Part shown: positions 6,887-17,062 of the stretch, one piece after another
Numbering within the stretch: the first letter of the stretch is position 1
Layout: every line of letters starts with the position of its first letter
DNA from: Thermoplasmata archaeon
GTDB taxonomy: Archaea; Thermoplasmatota; SW-10-69-26; JACQPN01; JAJPHT01
DNA length: 19,701 bases
Assembly: GCA_034667685.1 (NCBI GenBank)
Contig: JAXDQU010000084.1
Coordinates: 1 to 19,701 of the forward strand
Direction: 5' to 3'
Notes under the pieces: model-generated
Told to the model about the DNA's origin: nothing
Databases searched by the model: none
Seen by the model: the letters and a program-made list of their open reading frames with translations, nothing else
Translations under genes and position numbers: made by a program

Positions 6887-8800
6887 ATGGGCGTCGAAGA
6901 CGTACTCCGCGAGATCCGCGACGAGGTCAAGAAGGAGGTCCCCTCCTCCATCGAGGTCACGGACATCGAGTTCGAGGCCGCGGTCCTCGTCATCTACACG
7001 AAGCACCCCGAGAAGTTCGCGGAGGACGAGGACCTCGTGCGCCGGCTCGCCAAGAAGCTGCGCAAGCGCGTCGTCGTCCGACCGGACCCCAGCGTGCTGG
7101 CGAAGATCGAGGAGGCCGACAAGAAGGTGCGCGACCTCGTGCCCGCGGAGGCCGAGATCACGGAGCTGTACTTCGAGCCCGACATCGGCGAGGTCATCAT
7201 CGAGGCGCGCAAGCCCGGCCTCGTCATCGGCCGCCACGGCACCACGCTGAACGACATCAAGAAGGCCATCGGCTGGGCGCCGAAGGTCATCCGCACGCCG
7301 CCCATCCCGTCGAAGACGGTGAAGGACCTTCGTGAATACCTGCGCAGCGTGGCGGACGAGCGCAAGGACATCCTGCACCGCGTCGGCCGGCGCATCTACC
7401 GCGGCGGCGTCAAGGAGGAGCAGTGGGTCCGCTGGACTTCGCTCGGAGGCTACCGCGAGGTGGGCCGCTCGTGCCACCTGCTCCAGACGCAGGACACCAA
7501 GATCCTCATCGACTGCGGCGTCAACTTCAGCAACGACGACAAGGCCTCGCCCTACCTTCACCTCGGTGAAGTTTGGCCGCTCACGCAGCTCGACGCCGTG
7601 ATCCTCACGCACGCGCACATGGACCACTGCGGCCTGATCCCGCTGCTCTACAAGTACGGCTACGACGGGCCCGTGTACTGCACGCCGCCCACGCGGGATC
7701 TGTCCGTCTTGATGCAGCTCGATTACATCAAGATCGCCGCGGCGGAAGGCAAGAAGCCGCCCTACGAGTCGGACCACGTGCGCGAGTGGGTCAAGCATTG
7801 CGTGACGCTGGAGTTCGGCGACACGACGGACATCGCGCCCGACGTCAAGCTCACGTTCAGCAACAGCGGCCACATCCTGGGCTCGGCCGTCTCGCACTTC
7901 CACATCGGCGACGGCTTCTACAACGTGTGCTGCACGTCGGACATGAAGTACGAGCGCACGTGGCTGTTCAACCCGACGAACAACAAGTTCCCGCGTCTCG
8001 AGACGCTCATCATCGAGGCGACGTACGGGGGCCGGAACGACTTCCAGCCCACGCGCCAGCAGGCCACGGACCAGATGAAGGAGATCTGCCAGCGCGTGCT
8101 CACGCGCGGCGGCAAGGTCATCGTCCCCTCCTTCGCCGTGGGCCGCAGCCAGGAGATCATGCTCGTGATGGAGGAGCTCATCCGCAACGGCGACTGCCCG
8201 CGCGTGCCAGTCTACCTCGACGGCATGATCTGGGAGGCCACCGCCATCCACACGGCCTACCCGGAATACCTGAACAACGAGCTTCGGAACGAGATCTTCC
8301 ACGAGGGCTCGAACCCGCTCCTCAGTGACATCTTCATCCGCGTCGACTCGTTCGAGATGCGCCGCAAGGTCGTGGACAGCGACGAGCCGTGCGTCGTCGT
8401 CACCACGAGCGGCATGATGAGCGGCGGCCCGGTCATGGAATATTTCCGCAACTGGGCCGCGGACCGGCGCAACGCGCTCGTCTTCGTCGGCTTCCAGGCC
8501 GGCGGCACGCTCGGACGCCGCATCCAGCAGGGCTGGCGCGAGATCCCCATGGCCGGCCAGGGCGGCCGGAGCAACGTCGTCAAGATCGAGATGGACGTCG
8601 AGACCGTCGACGGCTTCAGCGGCCACTCCGACCGCCGGCAGCTGATGAACTACATCAACAACATCACGCCGAAGCCCGACCGGGTCATCACGATGCACGG
8701 CGAGGAATCGAAGTGCATCGACTTCGCCACGTCGATCCACAAGAAGTACCACATCCACACGGATGCGCCCTACAACTTGGAGACGATTCGCCTGAAGTGA
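6887..8800 (+). CDS. fttA: Archaeal beta-CASP ribonuclease aCPSF1 / transcription termination factor FttA
   Basis: N-terminal KH domains (PGLVIGRHG), metallo-beta-lactamase THAHMDH, beta-CASP FAVGRSQE and GFSGHSD, C-terminal NLETIRL; 637 aa; conserved synteny with psmB. Confidence 0.95.
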   Translation: MGVEDVLREIRDEVKKEVPSSIEVTDIEFEAAVLVIYTKHPEKFAEDEDLVRRLAKKLRKRVVVRPDPSVLAKIEEADKKVRDLVPAEAEITELYFEPDIGEVIIEARKPGLVIGRHGTTLNDIKKAIGWAPKVIRTPPIPSKTVKDLREYLRSVADERKDILHRVGRRIYRGGVKEEQWVRWTSLGGYREVGRSCHLLQTQDTKILIDCGVNFSNDDKASPYLHLGEVWPLTQLDAVILTHAHMDHCGLIPLLYKYGYDGPVYCTPPTRDLSVLMQLDYIKIAAAEGKKPPYESDHVREWVKHCVTLEFGDTTDIAPDVKLTFSNSGHILGSAVSHFHIGDGFYNVCCTSDMKYERTWLFNPTNNKFPRLETLIIEATYGGRNDFQPTRQQATDQMKEICQRVLTRGGKVIVPSFAVGRSQEIMLVMEELIRNGDCPRVPVYLDGMIWEATAIHTAYPEYLNNELRNEIFHEGSNPLLSDIFIRVDSFEMRRKVVDSDEPCVVVTTSGMMSGGPVMEYFRNWAADRRNALVFVGFQAGGTLGRRIQQGWREIPMAGQGGRSNVVKIEMDVETVDGFSGHSDRRQLMNYINNITPKPDRVITMHGEESKCIDFATSIHKKYHIHTDAPYNLETIRLK

Positions 8801-8903
8801 GCGAAGCGAACGAAGGCGAATCGGCGATAAGTTGGAGGGGGGCCGCCGTCTCCGCAGAGCGGCGAGCGCCCTACAACTTGGAGACGATTCGCCTGAAGTG
8901 AGC
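8765..8903 (+). mobile_element. 101-bp self-complementary mini-insert duplicating the aCPSF1 3' end (38-bp perfect direct repeat)
   Basis: gcgccctacaacttggagacgattcgcctgaagtgagc at 8765-8802 and 8866-8903. The insert contains GTGAGCGAAGCGAAC, an imperfect antisense copy of the repeat (8814-8843) and a small hairpin cgccgtctc-cgca-gagcggcg. The repeat is observed; mobility is inferred. Confidence 0.6.
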
Positions 8904-8911
8904 CCGCCGCG

Positions 8912-8950
8912 CGCTGGAGGCGTGTCAGCAATCCTCCACAACGCTGGAGA
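8912..8950 (+). promoter_or_regulatory. Conserved upstream motif of secreted paralog 1
   Basis: cgctggaggcgtgtcagcaatcctccacaacgctggaga, nearly identical to 11022-11060 and at the same distance from the start codon; contains CTCCA-N6-TGGAG. Confidence 0.65.
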
Positions 8951-8983
8951 TGCGCGCCGCCCTAACAGCGCGCGAGGCTCCTC

Positions 8984-9958
8984 ATGCGCGCACAAGGTCT
9001 GCTCGTTCCCTTCGGCATCGCGATCGTGCTCCTCGTGCCCGTGTCGGGCTTCGCCGCCACGGTCCCGCCGCTCCCGAACTGCGACTCGACGAATGTCAAC
9101 TACCAGCCCACGCAGACGACCCACGTCTTCGTGGTCGCTGGCGACTTCGGCGCGACGATCAACTCCCAGTTCGGCGGCGTCGGCGGCGCCACCAACGCGT
9201 TCGACACGTCGGGCTGCGCGACGGGCGACGGCGACAACGAGACGGGCCAGGGCGCCGCCCAGTTCCCTGAGGTCAGCCAAGGCGCTTGCGACCCCGCGCC
9301 GCCCGTCTCGGGCCACCACAACGGCGGCGTCGGCGCGACCGCGACGGTGCAGACCAACACGGCGAACCTGCCGATGGACTTCACCTTCGGCACGGATGGC
9401 CAGGACCCGGCCGCCTGGCTCGCGGCCCAGACCTGCACGGGCAACGGCATCGTCTCGGACAGCTACGACACGGACCCCTTCGATTGCGGCCAAGGAGTTG
9501 TGGGCCACTTCCCCGGCACGAGCGCGACGCTCGCGGCCAACCCGAACCCCCACGACAACAGCGTGACTGACCCTGACCCGTGGGCGACCTTCTTCGGCGC
9601 GGTCGCGCAGAACACGGCGCGCGCCGACCCCAACGGCGTCCAGTGCTTCGGCGTGCTTGACGGCAGCGCGTGGGCGTTCACCATCTTCGGACCCAGCGTC
9701 GGGGGCGTGCCCCCCCTGTCCGACCGCCTCCCGGACGTCTGGGATCCGCGACCCGCCTCGGACCATCCCGTCACCGACTCCTCGGGCTGTCCGAAGCCCG
9801 TCGGCAACGGCTCCTCGGTCGGCGGCGGCGTCGAGGGCACGGGCTGGCTCACAGGACCCTTCGACGGCAACCACGAGTGCGGCATCGGCTCGCTCCCGGG
9901 CGACCCCCCGACCGTGGGCGTGAGCACGCCCATCCAAGGCACCATCACGGCGCCCTGA
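8984..9958 (+). CDS. Secreted Cys/Gly/Asp/Thr-rich protein, paralog 1 of 3 (unknown family)
   Basis: Signal peptide then TVPPLPNC; 8 conserved Cys; ends GTITAP; extensive identity to the next two ORFs. Confidence 0.85.
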   Translation: MRAQGLLVPFGIAIVLLVPVSGFAATVPPLPNCDSTNVNYQPTQTTHVFVVAGDFGATINSQFGGVGGATNAFDTSGCATGDGDNETGQGAAQFPEVSQGACDPAPPVSGHHNGGVGATATVQTNTANLPMDFTFGTDGQDPAAWLAAQTCTGNGIVSDSYDTDPFDCGQGVVGHFPGTSATLAANPNPHDNSVTDPDPWATFFGAVAQNTARADPNGVQCFGVLDGSAWAFTIFGPSVGGVPPLSDRLPDVWDPRPASDHPVTDSSGCPKPVGNGSSVGGGVEGTGWLTGPFDGNHECGIGSLPGDPPTVGVSTPIQGTITAP

Positions 9959-10004
9959 GCAACGACGGGTCGCGGCGGATCGTAACACGCCTCGGGATTT
10001 CCTC

Positions 10005-10018
10005 GCAATCCTCCACAA
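10005..10018 (+). promoter_or_regulatory. Partial copy of the conserved upstream motif (paralog 2)
   Basis: gcaatcctccacaa is shared with the 8912 and 11022 motifs but lacks the TGGAG arm. Confidence 0.5.
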
Positions 10019-10049
10019 GGGCCGAACCGGGGCGTTACGATACCAGGGT

Positions 10050-10991
10050 GTGAAATCACCCATCCTCGTCGCGCTGCTCCTGCTCGCCAGCCTCGTGCTT
10101 GCGGTGGCGATGGCGGTCACGATTCCCCCGCTGCCGAACTGTAGCTGGAATCCCCCTCCTTCCCGCTACCTGCCCGCCCAGACGACCCACGAGTTCTTCT
10201 TCGCTTCCAGCTTCGGCGCGACGATCGACTCCCAGTTCTACGGTTTGTGGACGAAGCCGATGGTCTTCGACACGAGCGGCTGCGCGACCGGCGACGGCGA
10301 CAACGATGCAGGCGTCGGCGGCGCTCAGTTCCCTGAGACCAGCCAGGGCGCCTGCGACCCCGCGGCTCCCGTCGTGGGCCACCACAACGGTGGCGTCGGC
10401 GCGACCGCGACGATCCAGACGAACACGGCGAACCTGCCCGTGGACTTCACTTTCGGCACGGACGGCCAGGACCCTGCGAAGTGGTTCGCGGGTCAGACCT
10501 GCACGGGCAACGACATCATCAGCGACAGCTATGACACGGATCCCTTCGACTGCGGTCAGGGCGTGACGGGCCACTTCCCGGGCACGAGCGCGACGCTCGC
10601 GGCCAACGTGAACCCCCACGACGGCAGCACGACTGACCCCGACCCGTGGGCAGCGTCCTTTGGCGCGATCGCGCAGAACACCGCCCGCACTGACCCCAAC
10701 AACGTCATGTGCTTCGGCGTCAACGACGGCAGCGCTTGGGCATCCACCATCTTCGGCCCCAGCGTCTCGGGTCTCCCCGGCCTGACCGGCGGTCCCCTCC
10801 TCGACCTGACCGGCTGCCCCGTCATCGGTGACAGCTCGTCGGTTGGCGGCGGCCTCGCGGGCACCGGCCTGCTGACCGGCCCCCTCGCGGGCAACAACCA
10901 GTGCGGCATCGGCTCCATTCCGGGTATCGATCCTGGCAGCCCCAGCCTGGGCTGGAGCACCCCGCTCGACGGTACCATCACGGCCCCCTGA
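10050..10991 (+). CDS. Secreted Cys/Gly/Asp/Thr-rich protein, paralog 2 of 3
   Basis: GTG start, signal peptide, TIPPLPNC, 8 Cys, GTITAP end. Confidence 0.85.
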   Translation: MKSPILVALLLLASLVLAVAMAVTIPPLPNCSWNPPPSRYLPAQTTHEFFFASSFGATIDSQFYGLWTKPMVFDTSGCATGDGDNDAGVGGAQFPETSQGACDPAAPVVGHHNGGVGATATIQTNTANLPVDFTFGTDGQDPAKWFAGQTCTGNDIISDSYDTDPFDCGQGVTGHFPGTSATLAANVNPHDGSTTDPDPWAASFGAIAQNTARTDPNNVMCFGVNDGSAWASTIFGPSVSGLPGLTGGPLLDLTGCPVIGDSSSVGGGLAGTGLLTGPLAGNNQCGIGSIPGIDPGSPSLGWSTPLDGTITAP

Positions 10992-11021
10992 TCTGCAGCG
11001 AGCGTGGACGCGTCGCAGGCC

Positions 11022-11060
11022 CGCTGGATGGTTGTTAGCAATCCTCCACAACGCTGGAGA
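11022..11060 (+). promoter_or_regulatory. Conserved upstream motif of secreted paralog 3
   Basis: cgctggatggttgttagcaatcctccacaacgctggaga; the last 24 bp are identical to 8927-8950. Confidence 0.65.
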
Positions 11061-11094
11061 ACGCGTCCCGCCGTGGCGGGGGCGAGGCTTGGTC

Positions 11095-12030
11095 ATGCGC
11101 ATGTCCCCCTTGCTCGGTCCGCTCGGCGTCGCCCTCTTCCTGCTCTTGTCCATCGTCGCCACGGCGGCCACCGTCCCCCCGCTCCCGAACTGCGACTCGT
11201 CGAACCCCAACTACGTCCCCGCGCAGACGACGCACGCCTTCGTCATCGCCGGCAACTTCGGCGCGACAATCGACTCCCAGTTCGGCGGCGTCGGCGTGGC
11301 GAACGTGTTCGACACGTCCGGCTGCGCGACGGGCGATGGCGACAACGAAACGGGCCAGGGCGGCGCTCAGTTCCCCGAGACCAGCCAGGGCGCTTGTGAC
11401 CCGGCGGCCCCCACTGTGGGCCACCACAATGGCGGCACCGGTGCCACCGCGACGGTCCAGACGAACACGGCGAACCTGCCCATGGACTTCACCTTCGGCA
11501 CCGATGGGCAAGACCCCGTCGCGTGGACGGGTGGTCAACCTTGCACGGGCAACACGATCATCAGCGACAGCTATGACACGGACCCCTTCGACTGCGGTCA
11601 GGGCGTGACAGGCCACTTCCCGGGCGTCAGCGCGACCCTCGCGCCCAACCCGAACCCGCACGATGGCAGCACGACTGACCCCGACCCGTGGGCGACGTCC
11701 TTCGGCGCGGTCGCGCAAGGCACGTCCCGCACGGACCCCAACGGCGTCCAGTGCTTCGGTGTTCTCGACGGCAGCGCTTGGGCGTTCTTCGTGTTCGGCC
11801 CCAGCGGCTCGGACCTGCCCATCGTGGGCGACGTCCCCATCACCGACTTCTCGGGCTGCCCCATCATCGGCACCGGCTCCTCGGAGGGCGATGGCCTCGC
11901 GGGCACGGGCCTGCTGACCGGCCCCCTCCCGGGCGACAACCAGTGCGGCATCGGCTCGCTCAACATCGATCCTGGCAGTCCGAGCGTGGGCACGAGCACA
12001 CCCGTTCAGGGCACCATCACGGCGCCCTGA
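11095..12030 (+). CDS. Secreted Cys/Gly/Asp/Thr-rich protein, paralog 3 of 3
   Basis: Start at MRMSPLL (11095, alternative 11101), signal peptide, TVPPLPNC, 8 Cys, GTITAP end. Confidence 0.85.
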   Translation: MRMSPLLGPLGVALFLLLSIVATAATVPPLPNCDSSNPNYVPAQTTHAFVIAGNFGATIDSQFGGVGVANVFDTSGCATGDGDNETGQGGAQFPETSQGACDPAAPTVGHHNGGTGATATVQTNTANLPMDFTFGTDGQDPVAWTGGQPCTGNTIISDSYDTDPFDCGQGVTGHFPGVSATLAPNPNPHDGSTTDPDPWATSFGAVAQGTSRTDPNGVQCFGVLDGSAWAFFVFGPSGSDLPIVGDVPITDFSGCPIIGTGSSEGDGLAGTGLLTGPLPGDNQCGIGSLNIDPGSPSVGTSTPVQGTITAP

Positions 12031-12041
12031 ATCGGAGCGCC

Positions 12042-12809
12042 CTAGATCAGCTCGCGCGCCCGCGCCGTGAACGCGACGTCCGTGGGGCGGCGCGGCGAGC
12101 GCATGGGCGCGGTGCCGGTGGCGGCGAGGATGCCAAGGCCGGCGGCGAAGGCCAGCGCGCGCTCCGCCATGTCCCACCACCAGAGGTCGCCCACGAGCCA
12201 GCCGACGAGGTCGGGGGCGAAGAAGAGGAGCAGCGCGGCGGAGGTGAGGACGACGCGGCGGCGCGCGGCGCGGCCCGGCGTGACGCGGAGGAGCGAGGCG
12301 TAGGCAACCGTGGCGACGAGGGGCGGGCCGAAGAGCAGGAGGAGCAGCGCGTCCCACACCGGCGCGGGCTGTGGGCGCAGGTAGTCGAGGCCGAGGGAGG
12401 AGAAGCCGACGTGGACGCCGAAGGGGGCGCGCCACGCGTAGTACGCCTCCAGCGCGAGGAAGAGCGCGAGGTAGGCGCCCGCGACGGGGAGGCGGAGGCG
12501 GCGCGAGCCCGAGAAGATCACCAGGAGGTAGACGACGAGCCCCGCGAAGCTGGCGCACACGGACGCGAGCTTGACCTGGAGGATGGCGAGCGCGAAGGGG
12601 AGCTCGTCGAAGCGCGAGGTCCACGCGAGGCCCCAGAGCGCGTCCGCCCCGACGTAGCCCGCGGCGCCCAGCCAGAAGACGGCGAACGCGCGCAGCGGGG
12701 GTGAGCCGGTGGCGATCGCGCGGCGCCACGTGCGCACGCCGCCCCACGCGAGGAGCGCGGCGCACGCCAGCCCGAGGATCGAGCCCGCAAGCAGGTGGGA
12801 CGCCGCCAT
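12042..12809 (-). CDS. Polytopic membrane protein (about 7 TM), possibly a stand-alone sensor-like domain
   Basis: Seven hydrophobic segments across 255 aa; no recognisable catalytic domain. Confidence 0.7.
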   Translation of the reverse strand: MAASHLLAGSILGLACAALLAWGGVRTWRRAIATGSPPLRAFAVFWLGAAGYVGADALWGLAWTSRFDELPFALAILQVKLASVCASFAGLVVYLLVIFSGSRRLRLPVAGAYLALFLALEAYYAWRAPFGVHVGFSSLGLDYLRPQPAPVWDALLLLLFGPPLVATVAYASLLRVTPGRAARRRVVLTSAALLLFFAPDLVGWLVGDLWWWDMAERALAFAAGLGILAATGTAPMRSPRRPTDVAFTARARELI

Positions 12810-12882
12810 CCTTCGGGGCCTCTCCGCGCGCCTCTATTTGAGGCTGGCCCATCGCCGCGACGTCACCGACCCGTGGGCGGGC

Positions 12883-13605
12883 TCACGCCGGCGCGCCCTG
12901 CGTAAGGCACGACTGGTGCGCGTAGGGCGTCTTGTCGCGGGGCTGCGCGACGACCTTGTCGTCCGCCTTGCCGCAGACGGCGCACTCGCGCACGAGGATC
13001 GCGCTGATGCTGCCGAACGCCTCGACGACCTGCTTCGGAACGGGGTAACGCCGCACGCCGAAGGTGCGCGTGGCGGGGTCGAAGGCGAGGCCGAGGCTGC
13101 GGTCGTAGAAGTGCGGCCCGATGCGCCAGACGTACTCGGGCACCTCCTGCGAGAGGCGCCGGACGTAGCCCTCGACGAAGGGCGTGAGGTCGAAGTTGGC
13201 GACGGCCTCGCGGAAGTCGGACGACGCGAAGAAGACGACGCCGGGATCGCGCTTGCGCAGATGGAGCGGGTCGCTGTTGAAGAGGTCCTCGTGGCGCGCC
13301 ACGTCGAGCTGCAGGCGGTCGCGCGGGAGGAAGCCGCCGCGCGAGGCGCCCGCGAGCGCCACGGCCTCCGCGCTGTAGTATTGCGGCGCCTCCCCCTTGC
13401 GGTTCGTCTCGCCCACCCAGCGCTTCAGGCGCTCCCACGAGTCCTTGGCCTGCGCGAGGATGCGCGACTCCTGGCGCTGGTCGATGGCGAGGCCGCGCGC
13501 CTTGTTGCGCGTCTCCTCGTCGGGGCTCAGCGCGAGCGGACTGAACGCGCCGTAGGCGACCGTGGGCGGGATGGGCACGACGCGGCGAGACGCGGCTCCC
13601 GGCAT
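12883..13605 (-). CDS. Hypothetical protein with C-terminal putative Zn finger (CAVC...HQSC)
   Basis: C-terminal 240 aa of the 12883..14094 ORF has normal protein composition; start at MPGAASRR is inferred. Confidence 0.7.
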   Translation of the reverse strand: MPGAASRRVVPIPPTVAYGAFSPLALSPDEETRNKARGLAIDQRQESRILAQAKDSWERLKRWVGETNRKGEAPQYYSAEAVALAGASRGGFLPRDRLQLDVARHEDLFNSDPLHLRKRDPGVVFFASSDFREAVANFDLTPFVEGYVRRLSQEVPEYVWRIGPHFYDRSLGLAFDPATRTFGVRRYPVPKQVVEAFGSISAILVRECAVCGKADDKVVAQPRDKTPYAHQSCLTQGAPA

Positions 13606-13643
13606 GGGGTTTTCGCTACGCTCGGCGCCATGTGGGGCGAAGC

Positions 13644-14522
13644 TCACCCGCCGATGCCCAGCCCGGCGACCGTCACCTTCAGCTCGTCGCTCCAGAAGAG
13701 CGCCTGGCTGGTGGCGAGGTCGCCGTAGAGGACGACGCCGCGCAGGTAGTACGTGCCCGCGGTCGGGAACGTGCACGAGATCGTGTAGTTGTGCGGCACG
13801 GCGCCGGAGGTCTGCGTGCAGCCGTTCGGGTAGGCCGCGAAGCTGGGCGCCGCGGTGCTGTTGCCCCCGAACGTCGCGTTGACGAAGGCGGCGCTGCCCG
13901 CATCGCCCGCCACCGCGATGGTGAACTGCACGGGCTGCCCCGCGAGCGGGAGGCCGGTGCCCTGCGTGACGGTCACGGTCGCGTTGGCCACCCGGATCTG
14001 CTGCTGAGGGCCCCAGTAGTTGTGCGTGACGTTGTTCTCCGTGACGCGCGCGTGGCCGTAGAGGTAGATGGTGCCGGGCGCCGAGACGTTGCACGCGACG
14101 ACGAAGTCGCCGGGCAGGCTCCCGGGCGTGTGCGCGCAGGCGGTCATCGTCGCGGCGTCGGGGGCGGCCTGCGGCGAGGTCGCGTAGTGCGCGCCGATGT
14201 GGTCGCTGCTGAACTGCACCGCGCCCGCGACGTGCACCGTCACGTTGAACGGCTTGCCCACCGCGACCATGCTGGGCGCGCCGGGCGTCGTCACCGTGAA
14301 GGAGCTCTCGTCGAGGATGGTGGGCGTGCCCGGCGTCGTCGTGACGGGCGTGGTGCTCGCGGGCGTCGAGCTCGCCGGCGTCGTGCTCGCGGGCGTGGAC
14401 GTCTCCGGCGTGCTCGAGGCGGGCGTGCTGGAGGCGGGCGTCGAGGACGTGGTGGTGTTGCCGCCGGTGCAGCCCGCGAGGGCGAGCACCAGCACGAGCG
14501 TGGCGAGGAGGAGCGGTCGCAT
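13644..14522 (-). CDS. Lipoprotein with Ser/Thr/Pro-rich linker and two beta-rich (Ig-like) domains
   Basis: MRPLLLATLVLVLALAGC lipobox; (S/T)TPAS repeats; two similar domains ending PGTIYLYGHA and AGTYYLRGVV; TTAATG about 25 bp upstream of ATG 14522. Confidence 0.8.
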   Translation of the reverse strand: MRPLLLATLVLVLALAGCTGGNTTTSSTPASSTPASSTPETSTPASTTPASSTPASTTPVTTTPGTPTILDESSFTVTTPGAPSMVAVGKPFNVTVHVAGAVQFSSDHIGAHYATSPQAAPDAATMTACAHTPGSLPGDFVVACNVSAPGTIYLYGHARVTENNVTHNYWGPQQQIRVANATVTVTQGTGLPLAGQPVQFTIAVAGDAGSAAFVNATFGGNSTAAPSFAAYPNGCTQTSGAVPHNYTISCTFPTAGTYYLRGVVLYGDLATSQALFWSDELKVTVAGLGIGG

Positions 14523-14573
14523 CGAGGCGCGCGACTGCGCGGGCAACATTAACCCCTTCGACTTGCGCTGGCG

Positions 14574-15422
14574 CTATTGCCGCCCGACGACCATGATGAC
14601 GCGGCCGCCCTTGAACACGCGGATGGTGCCCGAGGACGACACGACGATGGCGAGCGCCTTGGAGGAGCGCGTGATGCTGGCCGCGGCGATGTGGCGCCCG
14701 CCCAGGCCCGATTGCACCTCGACCGCGCCCTCCGTGTCCACGTAGCGGCCCGCCGCCACGACGCAGCCATCGCCGCGCACGATGAACGCGCCGTCGATCT
14801 GGGCGAACTCCTTGGCCGTCTCCCAGAGGCCCTCGTCGAGGATGTTGCGGTCCTTCTCGGGGTGCCCCTCGAACGGGTTGAGCACGGCGGGGCGCGAGTG
14901 ACGCATGACCGAGTCCGTGTCGCCCACCACGAAGAGCGTGCCCACGGGCTTGCCCTCGCGGCCCTCGCGCGCCAGCTCCACCGCGAGCTTCAGGAGCCGC
15001 TCCACGACGCGCAGGTCCACGCCGTCCTCCAGCTCCTCCTGGAGGTGGACGATCTCGACGTCGCGCTGCACGTCGTAGTGCATCACCATGTCCACGGCGT
15101 CGCCCGCGGCCACCATGACGATGACGGAGTCGTGCGCGGTCAGCTCGCCCGCGAAGAAGGCGCCCAGCAGCACCTCCTTGACCTGCGGGAGGACGTTGAC
15201 GCTGCCCGAGATCGGCTGCGCGAGCTTGAGCGCGTGGCGCATCTTGGGCGCGTAGGTCTCGATCAGCTCCCCGTTGCCCGAGGCGAGGATGACGGGCAGG
15301 CGCATGGCCTCCAGCGTGGCGCGCACGACGTCCGCGCGGTCCGTCACGAGCACGACGAGCGTCGCCTCGAAGCGCTCGCTCAGGCGCTTGGCGGTCTCAA
15401 GGAGCACGCGCGACTTGTCCAC
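14574..15422 (-). CDS. dacZ: Diadenylate cyclase (DisA_N/DAC domain), archaeal DacZ type
   Basis: ELAREGREGKPVGTLFVVGD, EFAQIDGAF (DGA motif) and GLGGRHIAAA (RH motif), with an N-terminal regulatory domain; GTG start. Confidence 0.85.
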   Translation of the reverse strand: MDKSRVLLETAKRLSERFEATLVVLVTDRADVVRATLEAMRLPVILASGNGELIETYAPKMRHALKLAQPISGSVNVLPQVKEVLLGAFFAGELTAHDSVIVMVAAGDAVDMVMHYDVQRDVEIVHLQEELEDGVDLRVVERLLKLAVELAREGREGKPVGTLFVVGDTDSVMRHSRPAVLNPFEGHPEKDRNILDEGLWETAKEFAQIDGAFIVRGDGCVVAAGRYVDTEGAVEVQSGLGGRHIAAASITRSSKALAIVVSSSGTIRVFKGGRVIMVVGRQ

Positions 15423-15472
15423 TGCGTGGCGGAAGGCGCGGACCAGACTTCATGCTTGCGTCGCAGACGTCC

Positions 15473-15528
15473 GGGCTCCGGACTCCGGGCTCAAGGCTCC
15501 GGAGCCCAGAGTCCTGAGTCCGGAGCCC
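15473..15528. repeat. Palindrome built from heptamer repeats (CCGGGCT/CCGGACT-like)
   Basis: gggctccggactccgggctcaaggctcc | ggagcccagagtcctgagtccggagccc: 28-bp arms with 4 mismatches. Confidence 0.85.
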
Positions 15529-15549
15529 CGAGCCCCCGTGAGCGGTCGA

Positions 15550-15696
15550 TCAGCAGTATTTCCGAGGATCCGCGATCATGCCCTCGATGGCGCTCGCGGC
15601 GACGGTGGCGGGGCTCCCGAGATAGACCTCGGCCTGGCTCGATCCCATCCGCCCCTTGAAGTTGCGGTTGCTCGACGAGATGCACCGCTCGCCGGG
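15550..15696 (-). pseudogene. Displaced second copy of the leuC 3' end ([48 protein letters not shown])
   Basis: 46 codons encode exactly the same residues as the leuC C-terminus at a 250-bp offset; 20 of them are synonymously different. Confidence 0.85.
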
Positions 15697-15951
15697 CGCG
15701 ACACGGCCGAATCCGCCCGTGGGCGGAAACGCTCGCTTCGCTCGCTTTCGGCCTGTCGCGGCGGGAGAACGCTCGCCCGTCATCGGATGGTGGGCATCAA
15801 CTCACGTATTTTCTGGGGTCCGCGATCATGCCCTCGATGGCGCTCGCGGCGACGGTGGCGGGCGAGCCGAGGTAGACTTCAGCTTGGCTCGACCCCATAC
15901 GGCCTTTGAAGTTCCGATTCGATGACGAGATGCAGCGTTCTCCCGCCGCGA
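15697..15951 (-). mobile_element. 250-bp structured insert that supplies a recoded leuC 3' end
   Basis: 5-bp core TCGCG at both ends (15697-15701, 15947-15951); internal antisense to the recoded gene segment; GCGAGCGAAGCGAGC at 15731-15745 (- strand); hairpin at 15712-15727. Mobility is inferred. Confidence 0.65.
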
Positions 15952-17062
15952 GGATGCCGCCGGCCGCGCCCATGCACGGGCCGCAGCCGGGCGTGCCGAC
16001 GACCGCGCCGGCCTCCATGAGCGCCTGGAGCGTGCCGTCGTTCATCGCCTCGATCATCTGCGTCTTGCTCGCGGGCGTCACGATGAGGCGCACGTCGGGG
16101 TGGACCTTGTGTCCCTTGAGGATCCTCGCGGCCTCGCGCAGGTCCTCGACGCGGCCGTTGGTGCACGAGCCGAGGAACGCCTGGTCCACGGTCTTGCCCA
16201 CGACGCTCGTCACGGGGTGGACGTTGTCGACCGCGTGCGGGCACGCGACGCGCGGCTCCAGGCGGCTCACGTCGAAGCGGCGCTCGTCGCGGTAGCGCGC
16301 GTGCGGGTCGGCGGTGGCGAGGAAGGGGAGGTCGGTCTTGCCGCGCGCCGCGAGGTAGGCGCGCGTGATCGCATCGGGCGGGACCATCGCGGCCTGCGCG
16401 CCCATCTCGATGCCCATGTTGCAGAGCGTCTGGCGCTCCGGGACGCTGAAGCCCTCGATCGTCGACCCGTAATACTCCACGGCCCCGTAGTCGGCCCCGT
16501 CGGCGCGCACGTCGCGGATGATCTCCAGCGTGACGTCCTTGGCATACACGCCGCGCGGAAGGGCGCCGTCCACCTGGATGCGCATGGTCTCGGGGACGCG
16601 CAGCCACAATTCGCCCGCGGCCCAGACGGCGGCCATCTCGGTGGCGCCCACGCCGTAGCTGTACGCGCCCAGCGCGCCGTAGGTGCAGGTGTGCGAGTCG
16701 GTGCCCACGATGTGCATGCCCGGCAGCACGTGCCCCTTCTCGGGGAGCACCTGGTGGCAGATGCCCTCCTTCATGTCGTAGAAGCTCTCGATGCCCTGGG
16801 CCTTCACGAACTCGCGCACGATCTTCGCCTTGGTGGCCGTCTCGATGTCGGGCGCGGGGCTGCGGTGGTCGAGCGTGACGACCATGCGGCCCGCGTCGAA
16901 GACGGTGCGGACCGGGATGCCGCGGAAGATGGTGCCGATGAGGGCCGCGTTGTCGTGGCTCATCACCAGGTCGACCTTGGCCGTGACGACGTCGCCCGCC
17001 CGCGCGTCGGCCCGACCGCCCGCCCGCGCCAGGATCTTCTCGGCCATCGTGCGCCCAGCCAT
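15797..17062 (-). CDS. leuC: 3-isopropylmalate dehydratase / homoaconitase large subunit (archaeal LeuC/HacA type)
   Basis: [36 protein letters not shown] ([4Fe-4S] Cys) and [11 protein letters not shown]; 421 aa. Substrate specificity cannot be resolved from the sequence by eye. Confidence 0.85.

Follow-up and report, generated by a model that had tools for sequence, protein, structure and literature searches.

Two conserved genes with a second copy of their 3' end

What are the short inserts found at the 3' ends of two conserved genes of this archaeon, and are they mobile? The window (the whole stretch of DNA that was analysed, 19,701 nucleotides) contains one insert at aCPSF1/FttA and one at leuC. 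A sequence-only reading had described the two as sharing one design, and both are present as described, with their direct repeats, antisense copies, motif (GAGCGAAGCGA) and GC hairpins. The target ORFs, which it took to be intact, are both open, with Pfam matches to FttA/aCPSF1 and the aconitase family, and the inserts are non-coding and target-specific. In the following, X1 is the gene-attached copy of the gene end, X' the antisense target copy and X2 the displaced native end.

Site 1, aCPSF1/FttA:
6887..8800, plus strand: target gene 1, aCPSF1/FttA (Pfam KH_TffA, metallo-beta-lactamase, Beta-Casp and RMMBL domains)
8765..8802, plus strand: X1, gene-attached copy, encoding APYNLETIRLK followed by TGA and GC; same as X2
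8799..8809, plus strand: cap motif GAGCGAAGCGA, which includes the GCGAAGC mini-hairpin and overlaps the TGA stop
8814..8839, plus strand: X', antisense target copy, 81% complementary to 8768-8793
8844..8864, plus strand: GC hairpin from the fold, loop CGCA at 8853-8856
8866..8903, plus strand: X2, displaced aCPSF1 3' end, running on into native downstream DNA

Site 2, leuC:
15797..17062, minus strand: target gene 2, LeuC-type aconitase-family large subunit (ORF; Pfam aconitase family)
15806..15951, minus strand: X1, beginning with TC at 15951-15950
15756..15773, minus strand: X', perfect 18-nt antisense of the first 18 nt of X1
15702..15754, minus strand: canonical foot hairpin AGGCCGAA...TTCGGCC-GTG, enclosing two nested hairpins
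15733-15743, minus strand: motif of the GAGCGAAGCGA cap hairpin, nested in the foot hairpin
15713-15726, minus strand: GC hairpin, nested in the foot hairpin
15556..15701, minus strand: X2, displaced native leuC 3' end, encoding APGERC...KYC and a stop

At aCPSF1 the element-borne X1 comprises the last 35 nt of the gene plus the stop codon, and the 38-nt direct repeat (8765-8802 and 8866-8903, spacing 101) is perfect. X1 and X2 are thus exactly the same here, and the evidence for a foreign origin comes from other loci. In the DNA fold X' pairs with X2 at 8866-8894, and the GC hairpin corresponds, as a variant, to the canonical AGGCCGG...CCGGCC hairpin. At leuC the final 49 codons or so are element-borne. 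The repeat is 146 nt long (15556-15701 and 15806-15951, spacing 250) and 82% identical, and X', whose antisense target is 15934-15951, matches X2 at 78%.

A common architecture in about 30 sites

The sequence-only reading expected more copies, and the design does recur: about 30 times in this 3.48 Mb, 71% GC genome of a soil archaeon (G000), in nine other genomes of the 21-genome class and in two soil metagenome contigs. Nineteen of the G000 sites have the hairpin AGGCCGR...YCGGCC-GTG-TC, and about 11 variant sites have the identical part order. This order is X1, a GNA-looped mini-hairpin as an optional cap, X', a GC-rich hairpin whose loop is C-GNA-G, the junction G(T/A)(G/A)-TC and X2, and the inserts range from 40 to 250 bp. 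X1 is the unit's own copy of a gene or tRNA end, from a TC dinucleotide to the stop or start codon, and X' is the antisense of its first 4-26 nt.

What defines the family is the combination of antisense arm, GC hairpin and TC junction. GAGCGAAGCGA, put forward earlier as the family signature, is an optional cap only and is absent from minimal 60-nt units, which are found in tandem in L165 and G001:C5. In the genome the 11-mer is found 24 times, where Markov models predict 2.1-10.3 occurrences. Seven of the 24 are flanked by a perfect stem of 4 bp or more, compared with 1.0% of random positions, and nine lie between local direct repeats, counts that speak against chance.

The insertion site is NTC(G) inside the target, whose left edge reads NTC at 17 of 19 sites, and the right end of the element is ...CGGCCG-T-G directly before the TC. 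At three loci (C108, C21, C98) target and element have only TC(G) in common. The outer arms differ at every locus, and no core box beyond TC(G) is common to all sites. The direct repeats are of variable length, 8-164 nt, and end at the ORF boundary; no terminal inverted repeats were found in the units.

Base pairing was assessed in 21 aligned units. Of the X':X helix 74.8% is paired, and 12 of its 14 pairs show double changes; the hairpin helix is 98.8% paired, with compensatory changes at three of eight pairs. Slid alignments gave 32-46% pairing, and none of 500 shuffles reached the observed value. The GNA-type loops are always on the GTG-TC strand; GNA loops are described as an extraordinarily stable DNA mini-hairpin (PMC13037366).

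When circularised in silico, eight of eight units fold into two abutting hairpins, i.e. a dumbbell (z -3.6 to -10.4), and none of 100 shuffles was as stable. A dumbbell with the target copy in its stem had been predicted, and the folds reproduce it. The folds are driven by the X':X complementarity, and any mechanism that makes inverted copies would give the same.

Targets and occupancy

The targets are the ends of FttA, LeuC, RpoN, RadA, S2, S7, S10, PCNA, TFS, GrpE and tRNAs. The proposal that gene 3' ends are targeted holds for most units, which lie 10-80 nt beyond the stop codon of a same-strand gene, but it is too narrow: units are also found at gene 5' ends, at the 3' ends of tRNAs and at internal sites that are apparently in frame. 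Two G000 units (C55, C21) are apparently read through in frame, and the 5' end-replacing type carries its own start codon and a GGAGG motif. The same gene can be occupied in several genomes. The S10 3' end has different units in G000, G001, G002, G004 and G008, units occupy the S7 gene in G000, in G002 and in the metagenome contig L170, and at aCPSF1 two tandem units are present in G001 and likewise in G004.

Empty sites and the origin of X1

Empty sites in relatives, which had also been anticipated, are found at four genes. The leuC site is empty in G002, G003 and G004 and in four genomes from other genera of the family (G005-G008). The aCPSF1 site is empty in G003, and G002 has no duplicated gene end as judged by eye. 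The RadA site is empty in G001-G003, and the S10 site in G003.

We compared the two copies in 13 X1/X2 pairs. Of 191 codons, 131 are unchanged between the copies, 48 show a synonymous and 12 a non-synonymous difference. At leuC 22 of 49 codons differ, 20 of them synonymously (including Ser AGC/TCG twice and Arg CGG/AGA) and two non-synonymously, and the Pro in X2 is common to all seven relatives examined. Because X1 and X2 differ mainly synonymously, X1 is foreign coding DNA and not a local duplication; the codon comparison shows an origin that is foreign and shaped by selection. The S10 X1 is identical in G000 and G001, and their native X2 copies differ. At C82, as at aCPSF1, X1 equals X2.

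X' complements G+TC+X1, which is the sequence of the would-be circle junction. It fits X1 at least as well as X2 at 18 of 18 sites, with a small advantage (1-3 nt of 16) in a comparison that is biased, because the match to X' helped to locate X1. For the arrays at aCPSF1 in G001 and G004 the preference of X' for X1 over X2 is not decisive.

A possible mechanism and its alternatives

We propose that the units are miniature, non-autonomous, site-specific insertion elements, "gene-end replacement cassettes", which would move as folded single-stranded DNA circles with the help of a recombinase acting in trans; we give this reading about an even chance of being right. Upon insertion X1 would become the working gene end, with the native end X2 pushed downstream, and in tandem arrays at single sites the newest unit would adjoin the gene. 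The transposing form may be a single-stranded circle folded as a rod or dumbbell, in which the conserved hairpin makes up one half and an X1:X' duplex that mimics the target the other. A putative trans recombinase would exchange one strand at the junction between the halves, between G and TC, compare integron attC and CTX-phage-type elements. X' may build the target mimic, or it may be a guide that pairs with the target strand.

A broader version of this reading is more tentative, and we consider it less likely than not. It sees a new class of mobile DNA, gene-less single-stranded rods or dumbbells of 40-250 nt, each programmed for one essential gene or tRNA by a sense copy and an antisense guide, which would pass from one archaeal species to another and pile up at the ends of genes. 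Their recombinase would recognise the small hairpin with its GNA loop and identify the target through base pairing, so that it would be a naturally programmable single-strand DNA integrase.

The sequence-only reading, in which non-autonomous elements are mobilised by a recombinase, HUH enzyme or reverse transcriptase, is partly supported overall. In this 99% complete genome there are no matches to the IS200 Y1 HUH transposase (PF01797; control positive in six of 14 reference genomes) or to TnpB (PF07282; control positive in eight of 14), and none to IS110 transposases, reverse transcriptase (RVT_1) or Cas1. Among HUH enzymes this result covers the IS200 type; for Viral_Rep the control was silent. 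Recombinases are present, yet none is linked to the elements. The genome has five tyrosine recombinases, with three integrases at other tRNAs, and three serine recombinases, including a divergent pair of short Resolvase+Recombinase ORFs. None passes as an integron integrase (best score 97 bits, cut-off 265), and the distribution of the C1 integrase across genomes does not match that of the elements. No longer, gene-carrying version of the element was found within 15 kb. In contigs, the form of sequence data that was analysed, no excised circle, circle junction or empty-site read was seen.

Alternatively, the elements could be mobile as double-stranded DNA. A serine or tyrosine recombinase in trans would then cross over at the TC core, a protein would bind the GC hairpin as a palindrome, and X' would belong to a half-site made of inverted repeats. 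The three loci where TC(G) alone is common to target and element fit this explanation, as do the candidate enzymes in the genome and the adjacent pairs of Resolvase matches in all five genomes of the genus; a 2-bp core suits serine-recombinase crossover. However, at 40-100 bp units are too short for easy circularisation as duplex DNA, the loops are strand-specific and of GNA type, and the serine-recombinase family does not follow the elements, being present in seven of 10 carriers and five of 11 non-carriers. We consider movement as duplex DNA rather unlikely.

In a homing process, transcripts of the hairpin plus X2, or of X' plus the hairpin, would guide a nuclease to unoccupied alleles, repair would copy the element in from an occupied one, and the recoded X1 would protect occupied alleles. 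A hairpin followed by native target sequence does resemble a repeat-plus-guide layout, X1 is recoded relative to X2, and the targets are essential genes. Against this, neither TnpB nor Cas1 was found, recoding is absent where X1 equals X2 (aCPSF1 and C82), and in the 164-nt C72 pair the differences are not clustered beside the junction. Homing is in our view improbable.

The units might also never move. Replication template switching at stable mini-hairpins could create local tandem-inversion duplications, which would be kept as 3' stem-loops that stabilise or terminate transcripts. The direct-inverted-direct order of copies is what snap-back synthesis produces, the direct copies at site 1 are identical, and most units are directly behind stop codons of highly expressed genes. 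However, with one of the two copies non-coding, synonymous-only divergence between X1 and X2 could not have arisen in situ, and about 19 unrelated loci have the same conserved hairpin and junction. The 5' end-replacing type brings its start codon and GGAGG motif, and two species have an identical X1 next to differing native copies. We hold this explanation to be about as improbable as homing.

Finally, the genome is metagenome-assembled (124 contigs), and one Logan contig joins across the leuC repeat via a 44-nt identical block, which could be repeat collapse, but a mixed-strain assembly artefact has a negligible probability, because independent Logan contigs from two soil runs agree with the flanks without a single mismatch and break off precisely at the repeats, and the same antisense arms and hairpins are found in independent genomes and metagenome contigs.

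Relation to known elements

Integrons include ORF-less cassettes and are also found in archaea (PMC9668308). As far as that source describes them, attC sites are similar to our units in having an imperfect inverted repeat at the unit end that is foldable as a single strand, and a recombination point at the start of a 3' arm which is completed by the next unit or the target; units also form arrays, and the enzyme is able to work in trans. However, attC is described there with one conserved box, whereas the arms here are target-specific at each locus. The present elements enter housekeeping gene or tRNA ends and form arrays there, not at an attI site, and they carry a piece of the target gene in place of a cargo ORF, in a genome with no integron integrase above the cut-off.

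CTX-phage-type elements integrate a folded single strand via host Xer recombinases. The proposed folded strand, the stem that mimics a duplex target, the exchange of one strand and the host or trans enzyme are alike. The difference is that our elements are gene-less, of 40-250 nt, and target dozens of gene ends; Xer-dependent elements at the dimer-resolution site were rejected as an identification, the targets being gene and tRNA ends.

Integrative elements at the 3' ends of tRNA and protein genes have integrase-less derivatives (cis-mobilisable elements). These also land in conserved genes, restore them with a copy of the target end and displace the native end as a direct repeat, as at leuC, where X2 keeps the Pro and X1 is recoded. 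In contrast, the units here are 100-1000 times smaller and carry a hairpin as well as an antisense target copy, a single family extends to at least 20 different targets and also replaces gene 5' ends, and no cognate autonomous element was found.

Palindrome-associated elements derived from IS200/IS605 and REP/REPIN-RAYT repeats (PMC3116915) are, like our units, tiny, non-coding, hairpin-based, presumably moving as single-stranded DNA and mobilised in trans; however, they have the same stem at every copy, no target duplication and a need for a Y1 HUH enzyme. With no PF01797 match, varying outer arms and direct repeats of 8-164 nt, this assignment was rejected. Rickettsia-type palindromic elements insert in frame in coding genes and show that short palindromic inserts are tolerated in or at the ends of essential genes, but they have neither a target-end copy nor an antisense target arm.

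Four further candidates were rejected: a MITE of a DDE transposon (terminal inverted repeats absent, direct repeats of variable length, 8-164 nt, with no fixed target duplication), a diversity-generating retroelement (no RVT_1; X1/X2 differences codon-synonymous and at all bases, not adenine-specific), a casposon (no Cas1; repeats vary in length, with no fixed target duplication) and TnpB/omega-RNA homing (no PF07282 match).

Implications

The family looks like a kind of mobile DNA that has apparently not been described before. Should its members move in the proposed way, no smaller site-specific mobile elements would be known, and their landing site would be specified simply by carrying a sense and an antisense copy. 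This would point to a recombinase whose target is set by base pairing, which would be relevant to archaeal genome dynamics and possibly as a programmable DNA-insertion tool. Regardless of the mechanism, foreign coding sequence repeatedly replaces the ends of core genes (FttA, RadA, RpoN, PCNA, ribosomal proteins), with consequences for phylogenies and strain typing that use these markers. Gene callers and assemblers will break or mis-annotate at element sites. In uncultured soil archaea, the family allows single-stranded DNA transactions to be tested directly.

Inserts in FttA/aCPSF1 and leuC

The host genome, G000, comprises 3.48 Mb in 124 contigs with 71% GC and is rated 99% complete. According to Pfam, the target genes in the window are FttA/aCPSF1 (site 1) and an aconitase-family LeuC-type subunit (site 2). 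We call the gene-attached copy of the gene end X1, the antisense copy X' and the displaced native copy X2. The sequence-only reading described a direct repeat, an antisense copy, an 11-mer and a GC hairpin at both sites, and all of these are present as follows.

8765-8802 and 8866-8903: site 1, perfect direct repeat of 38 nt, spacing 101
8799-8809: site 1, 11-mer GAGCGAAGCGA, overlapping the TGA stop
8814-8839: site 1, antisense target copy between the repeats, 81% complementary
8844-8864: site 1, GC hairpin with loop CGCA
15556-15701 and 15806-15951: site 2, repeat of 146 nt behind the minus-strand gene, 82% identical, spacing 250
15713-15726: site 2, GC hairpin
15733-15743, minus strand: site 2, 11-mer GAGCGAAGCGA
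15756-15773: site 2, perfect antisense copy of 18 nt

Rfam, at gathering thresholds, gives no match in the whole window. Within the otherwise 82%-identical leuC copies a 44-nt block (15569-15612 and 15819-15862) is identical, which points to post-insertion gene conversion between X1 and X2.

The window also holds a second, unrelated REP-like family. Its intergenic palindromes, of the GGAGCCCCGAGCC / GGACTC type, lie at 15460-15535, where the contig depth reaches 57x in that bin, and elsewhere in G000 at C8:26590, C101:5766 and C112:8234. A different contig of two soil metagenome runs (named X1 and X2, not to be confused with the gene-end copies) has 27 other letters in place of 15336-15564.

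Signature and architecture of the family

The 11-mer GAGCGAAGCGA, first proposed as the family motif, is found 24 times in G000 compared with 2.1-10.3 copies expected under Markov models. Seven of the 24 copies are flanked by a perfect stem of 4 bp or more, against 1.0% of random positions, and 9 of 24 lie between local direct repeats. Within the family the 11-mer is only an optional cap, missing from minimal units. A better signature, which immediately precedes X2, consists of (G)A(T/C)-AGGCCGR, then a loop or a set of nested hairpins, then YCGGCC-GTG-TC. This pattern has 32 matches in G000, of which 19 were judged bona fide on reading. A separate scan for hairpins with complementary flanks and an upstream direct copy added the variants C111:12943, C68:7721, C17:149, C112:5969, C118:55623 and C45:399. 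The hairpin-plus-repeat scan served solely as a candidate list; the counts in the reversed genome are identical (291 and 23), a control that is invalid because reversal preserves hairpin and repeat alike. A loose genome scan with AGGCCGR..YCGGCCGTGTC gave 120 single hits, nearly all in high-GC bacteria, and these were judged to be chance.

Each gene-end replacement cassette, or unit, has the following parts, in order.

1. X1, the gene end, starting with TC and ending at the stop codon plus 0-5 nt
2. An optional cap, GAGCGAAGCGA or GCCGCAGC
3. X', antisense to the beginning of X1
4. An unpaired A
5. A GC hairpin with a C-GNA-G loop
6. G(T/A)(G/A)
7. TC, followed by X2, the displaced copy

The leuC element has the canonical foot, which encloses both the cap hairpin and a second hairpin; the aCPSF1 element is a stem variant, yet it retains the CGCA loop. 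The metagenome contig L165 carries two tandem 60-nt units, each consisting of X (26 nt), X' (10 nt), a hairpin (21 nt) and GTG. Three tandem 60-nt units with an X' of only 4 nt are found in a relative (G001:C5).

A common 45-nt inner hairpin insert is present at two different targets in G000, a tRNA-Ile (C45:310-429) and a protein gene (C118:55623-55700), so some parts of the units appear to be modular and exchangeable. Upstream of one chance match to the 11-mer (C38:18990-19003) we noted a 26-28-nt sequence that is found at about 40 other places, many of them contig ends, and recurs as inverted pairs across G000; it probably represents the terminal repeat of an assembly-breaking insertion sequence or MITE.

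Target genes

According to Pfam, the protein targets are FttA/aCPSF1, the LeuC-type subunit, RpoN, RadA, PCNA, GrpE, NFACT, the ribosomal proteins S2, S7 and S10, a TFS-type zinc ribbon protein, an AAA ATPase, dihydroorotate dehydrogenase and an Lrp/AsnC regulator. In addition, the 3' ends of tRNA-Ile, tRNA-Leu and tRNA-Arg (named by Pfam or ARAGORN) are targeted. Most units lie 10-80 nt beyond the stop codon of a same-strand gene, in agreement with the proposed 3'-end targeting, but 5' ends are replaced as well. The gene body is on the X1 side in every case, and when the gene runs in the opposite direction it is the 5' end that is replaced. At C58:4145-4365, for instance, ATG and 21 codons are duplicated, and the units at C39:43763, G003:C27/C47 and G003:C33 supply a start codon and a GGAGG motif of their own. 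Two units look like in-frame read-through insertions inside an ORF, C55:25089-25154 (C55:25128, in NFACT) and C21:19370-19450 (C21:19425), where they appear to add about 22-30 residues.

Covariation and spread in the class

We aligned 21 units, 18 from G000 and three from metagenome contigs. Pairing reaches 74.8% in the X':X helix, where both sides have changed at 12 of 14 pairs, and 98.8% in the hairpin helix, where three of eight pairs are compensatory. Sliding the partners by 1-3 columns reduces pairing to 32-46%, and none of 500 shuffles attains the observed pairing or covariation. The covariation shows that each unit holds an inverted copy of its own locus; alone it does not demonstrate selection for structure.

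A covariance model, as the sequence-only reading had envisaged, was built from this alignment and run on the 21 genomes of the class (G000 and its relatives G001-G020). It matches G000 and nine others.

Covariance-model matches (E 0.01 or better) per genome. The counts are lower bounds because 150 candidates were scored per genome.
G000: at least 28
G008: at least 14
G003: at least 10
G002 and G004: at least 4 each
G020: at least 3
G001 and G015: at least 2 each
G018 and G005: at least 1 each
Remaining 11 genomes: none among the 150 candidates scored in each

The 28 matches in G000 are the 18 training sequences, two opposite-strand echoes, C72 and seven uninspected hits; the X1/X2 pair of C72 spans 164 nt. 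Twenty hits in relatives were read in context, and in those examined in detail the order of parts is unchanged while the hairpin stems differ; G001:C57, G004:C107 and G005:C327 are left outside this assignment. The relatives' stems, e.g. AGGACG, AGACCG, AGGCCC and AAGCCGCG, retain a GNA-type loop and the junction before TC.

Folding and the junction

As single-stranded DNA, site 1 from X1 through X2 folds at -39.2 kcal/mol (z = -5.9), with X' paired to X2 around the inner hairpin, and its interior on its own is unremarkable (z = +0.4). When units are circularised by their coordinates, all eight, including both window elements, fold in silico into two abutting hairpins, the rod or dumbbell that had been predicted, with z from -3.6 to -10.4 and none of 100 dinucleotide shuffles equally stable. 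The loops are of the GNA type (GCA, GAA, GGA) and always on the GTG-TC strand. DNA mini-hairpins of the GCGNAGC type have been described as extraordinarily stable (PMC13037366). Together, the strand and this stability favour a DNA-level, strand-specific role for the loops.

In 17 of 19 canonical sites the left edge of the target reads NTC, mostly with G as the next base. At C108 the sequence common to X1 and X2 is only TCGG, and at C21 and C98 it is little longer, so that extended homology seems not to be required. Recombination of double-stranded DNA at the TC core is one rival to a mechanism in which an enzyme acting in trans would exchange one strand at G|TC of a folded single-stranded circle.

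The reverse complement of X' starts with A or G and then TC, so X' is complementary to the element's final G together with TC and X1, a stretch that is contiguous solely in a circular unit or a tandem array. Out of 16 positions, X' fits X1 at 12.2 and X2 at 9.5 on average; the controls are 6.5 ± 1.9 when other sites are compared in a fixed register and 10.0 ± 1.0 for the best match within a search window. The fit to X1 is at least as good as to X2 in 18 of 18 sites (two ties), with a margin of only 1-3 nt, and this comparison is biased because X1 was located partly through its match to X'. For aCPSF1 in G004 and G001, X' matches the successive X copies of the arrays at 14/11/13, 15/16/14 and 16/15/17 of 24 positions, with no clear preference. 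X' may be a target mimic or a guide, and a guided homing system is a second rival explanation.

Empty sites and the origin of X1

The comparison with relatives yielded the empty sites that the insertion proposal called for. No leuC duplication is present in G002, G003 or G004, nor in four genomes from other genera of the family (G005-G008). At aCPSF1, G003 is empty and G002, judged by eye, has no duplicated gene end, while G001 and G004 each have two tandem units with three diverged gene-end copies. The RadA site is empty in G001-G003, and G008 carries a shorter unit of its own. At S10, G003 has an empty site, and different units are present in G000, G001, G002, G004 (several nested) and G008. 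Units at S7 are seen in G000, in G002 and on metagenome contig L170. X2 of the S7 unit in G002 (L195; G002:C23:5052-5113 plus flanks) has TTG at the position of the stop codon, as expected of a copy that has gone out of use.

A third rival, template switching in place, would make X1 and X2 a gene end and its local copy. We compared 191 codons in 13 usable pairs, choosing the frame by GC3 and excluding the mis-registered C9 row. Of these, 131 are identical, 48 show synonymous and 12 non-synonymous differences; several of the 12 are the junction codon or the last residues. In leuC, 20 of 22 differing codons are synonymous, including Ser AGC/TCG twice and Arg CGG/AGA once. The non-coding partner of an in-place copy would drift at all codon positions, so this pattern means that X1 and X2 each evolved as a working gene end before meeting. 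The sequence comparison thus shows the units to be insertions, not local duplications, and X1 to be foreign coding DNA; at site 1, where X1 and X2 are identical, a foreign origin is not demonstrated. The leuC X2 looks native: it keeps a Pro common to seven of seven relatives and has A or T at the third position of 5 of its 49 codons, versus 11 of 49 in X1. Over all pairs the difference is modest (32 in X1, 23 in X2). The 24-nt X1 of S10 is identical in G000 and G001, whereas the upstream gene sequence and X2 differ between the two. Readings as a DGR or as seed-proximal recoding were rejected on the pattern of X1/X2 differences.

The remaining rival is an assembly artefact. Five DNA runs (soil, rhizosphere, mine), with no RNA run among them, are listed, and the read-level evidence consists of Logan contigs of soil metagenomes. 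Contigs of run X1 break off at each of the two repeat pairs (8794/8866 and 15598/15833). In run X2, one contig links 15568 directly to 15819, a 250-nt skip via the 44-nt identical leuC block; the depth of the interior (5.2) is close to that of the skip and the flank (5.6), so the skip may be a de Bruijn repeat collapse and is not counted as an empty site.

Candidate mobilisers

As to the proposed RT or HUH mobiliser, profile searches of G000 gave no match to PF00078 (RVT_1), PF01797 (Y1_Tnp), PF07282 (TnpB zinc-ribbon), PF01548 (IS110 DEDD transposase) or PF01867 (Cas1); the PF02407 (Viral_Rep) search is uninformative, its control being silent as well. The sequence-only reading also suggested looking for longer, enzyme-carrying versions, and no distant X1 was found up to 15 kb upstream of nine hairpin sites.

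G000 has five tyrosine recombinases, and none reaches the integron-integrase cut-off. One of them, at C34:108027-109010, is Xer-like and counts as a candidate mobiliser. The fifth, an integrase on contig C1, was rejected because its phyletic profile mismatches the carriers: it is present in G004, G002, G009 and G010 and absent from G003 and G008. Tyrosine integrases adjoin tRNA-Val/Gln (C25:35533-36645), tRNA-Arg (C79:16377-17492) and tRNA-Ser (C78:20706-21857), the latter two beside stretches without coding-like ORFs, and these three are probably ordinary integrated elements.

There are also three serine recombinases in G000. The Resolvase family is found in 7 of 10 element carriers versus 5 of 11 non-carriers. 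Two divergent adjacent ORFs of 287 and 335 aa at C106:90610-92493 (L261:2111-3994) match Resolvase and Recombinase and have no zinc-ribbon; similar adjacent pairs of Resolvase hits are present in five of five genomes of the genus. We regard this divergent pair as a candidate mobiliser, as a lead only.

A proposed family of gene-end replacement cassettes

The architecture, its recurrence, the empty sites, X1's foreign coding origin and the tandem stacking at single sites are all established by the data. On the best-supported reading, the units form one family of gene-end replacement cassettes, miniature and non-autonomous, that have an NTC insertion site and move between species. In a tandem array the newest unit would be the one adjoining the gene.

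In their working the units most resemble integron attC cassettes and Xer-dependent folded-strand integrating elements, and like classical integrative elements they restore the target, but they lack some of the defining features of each. The archaeal integrons reported in PMC9668308 are canonical and not of the gene-end replacement design. No description of such elements was found in the full-text literature, a search whose coverage excludes subscription journals. Judging kinship by architecture, with the mechanism as a proposal, we rate the cassette family as categorically new in architecture.
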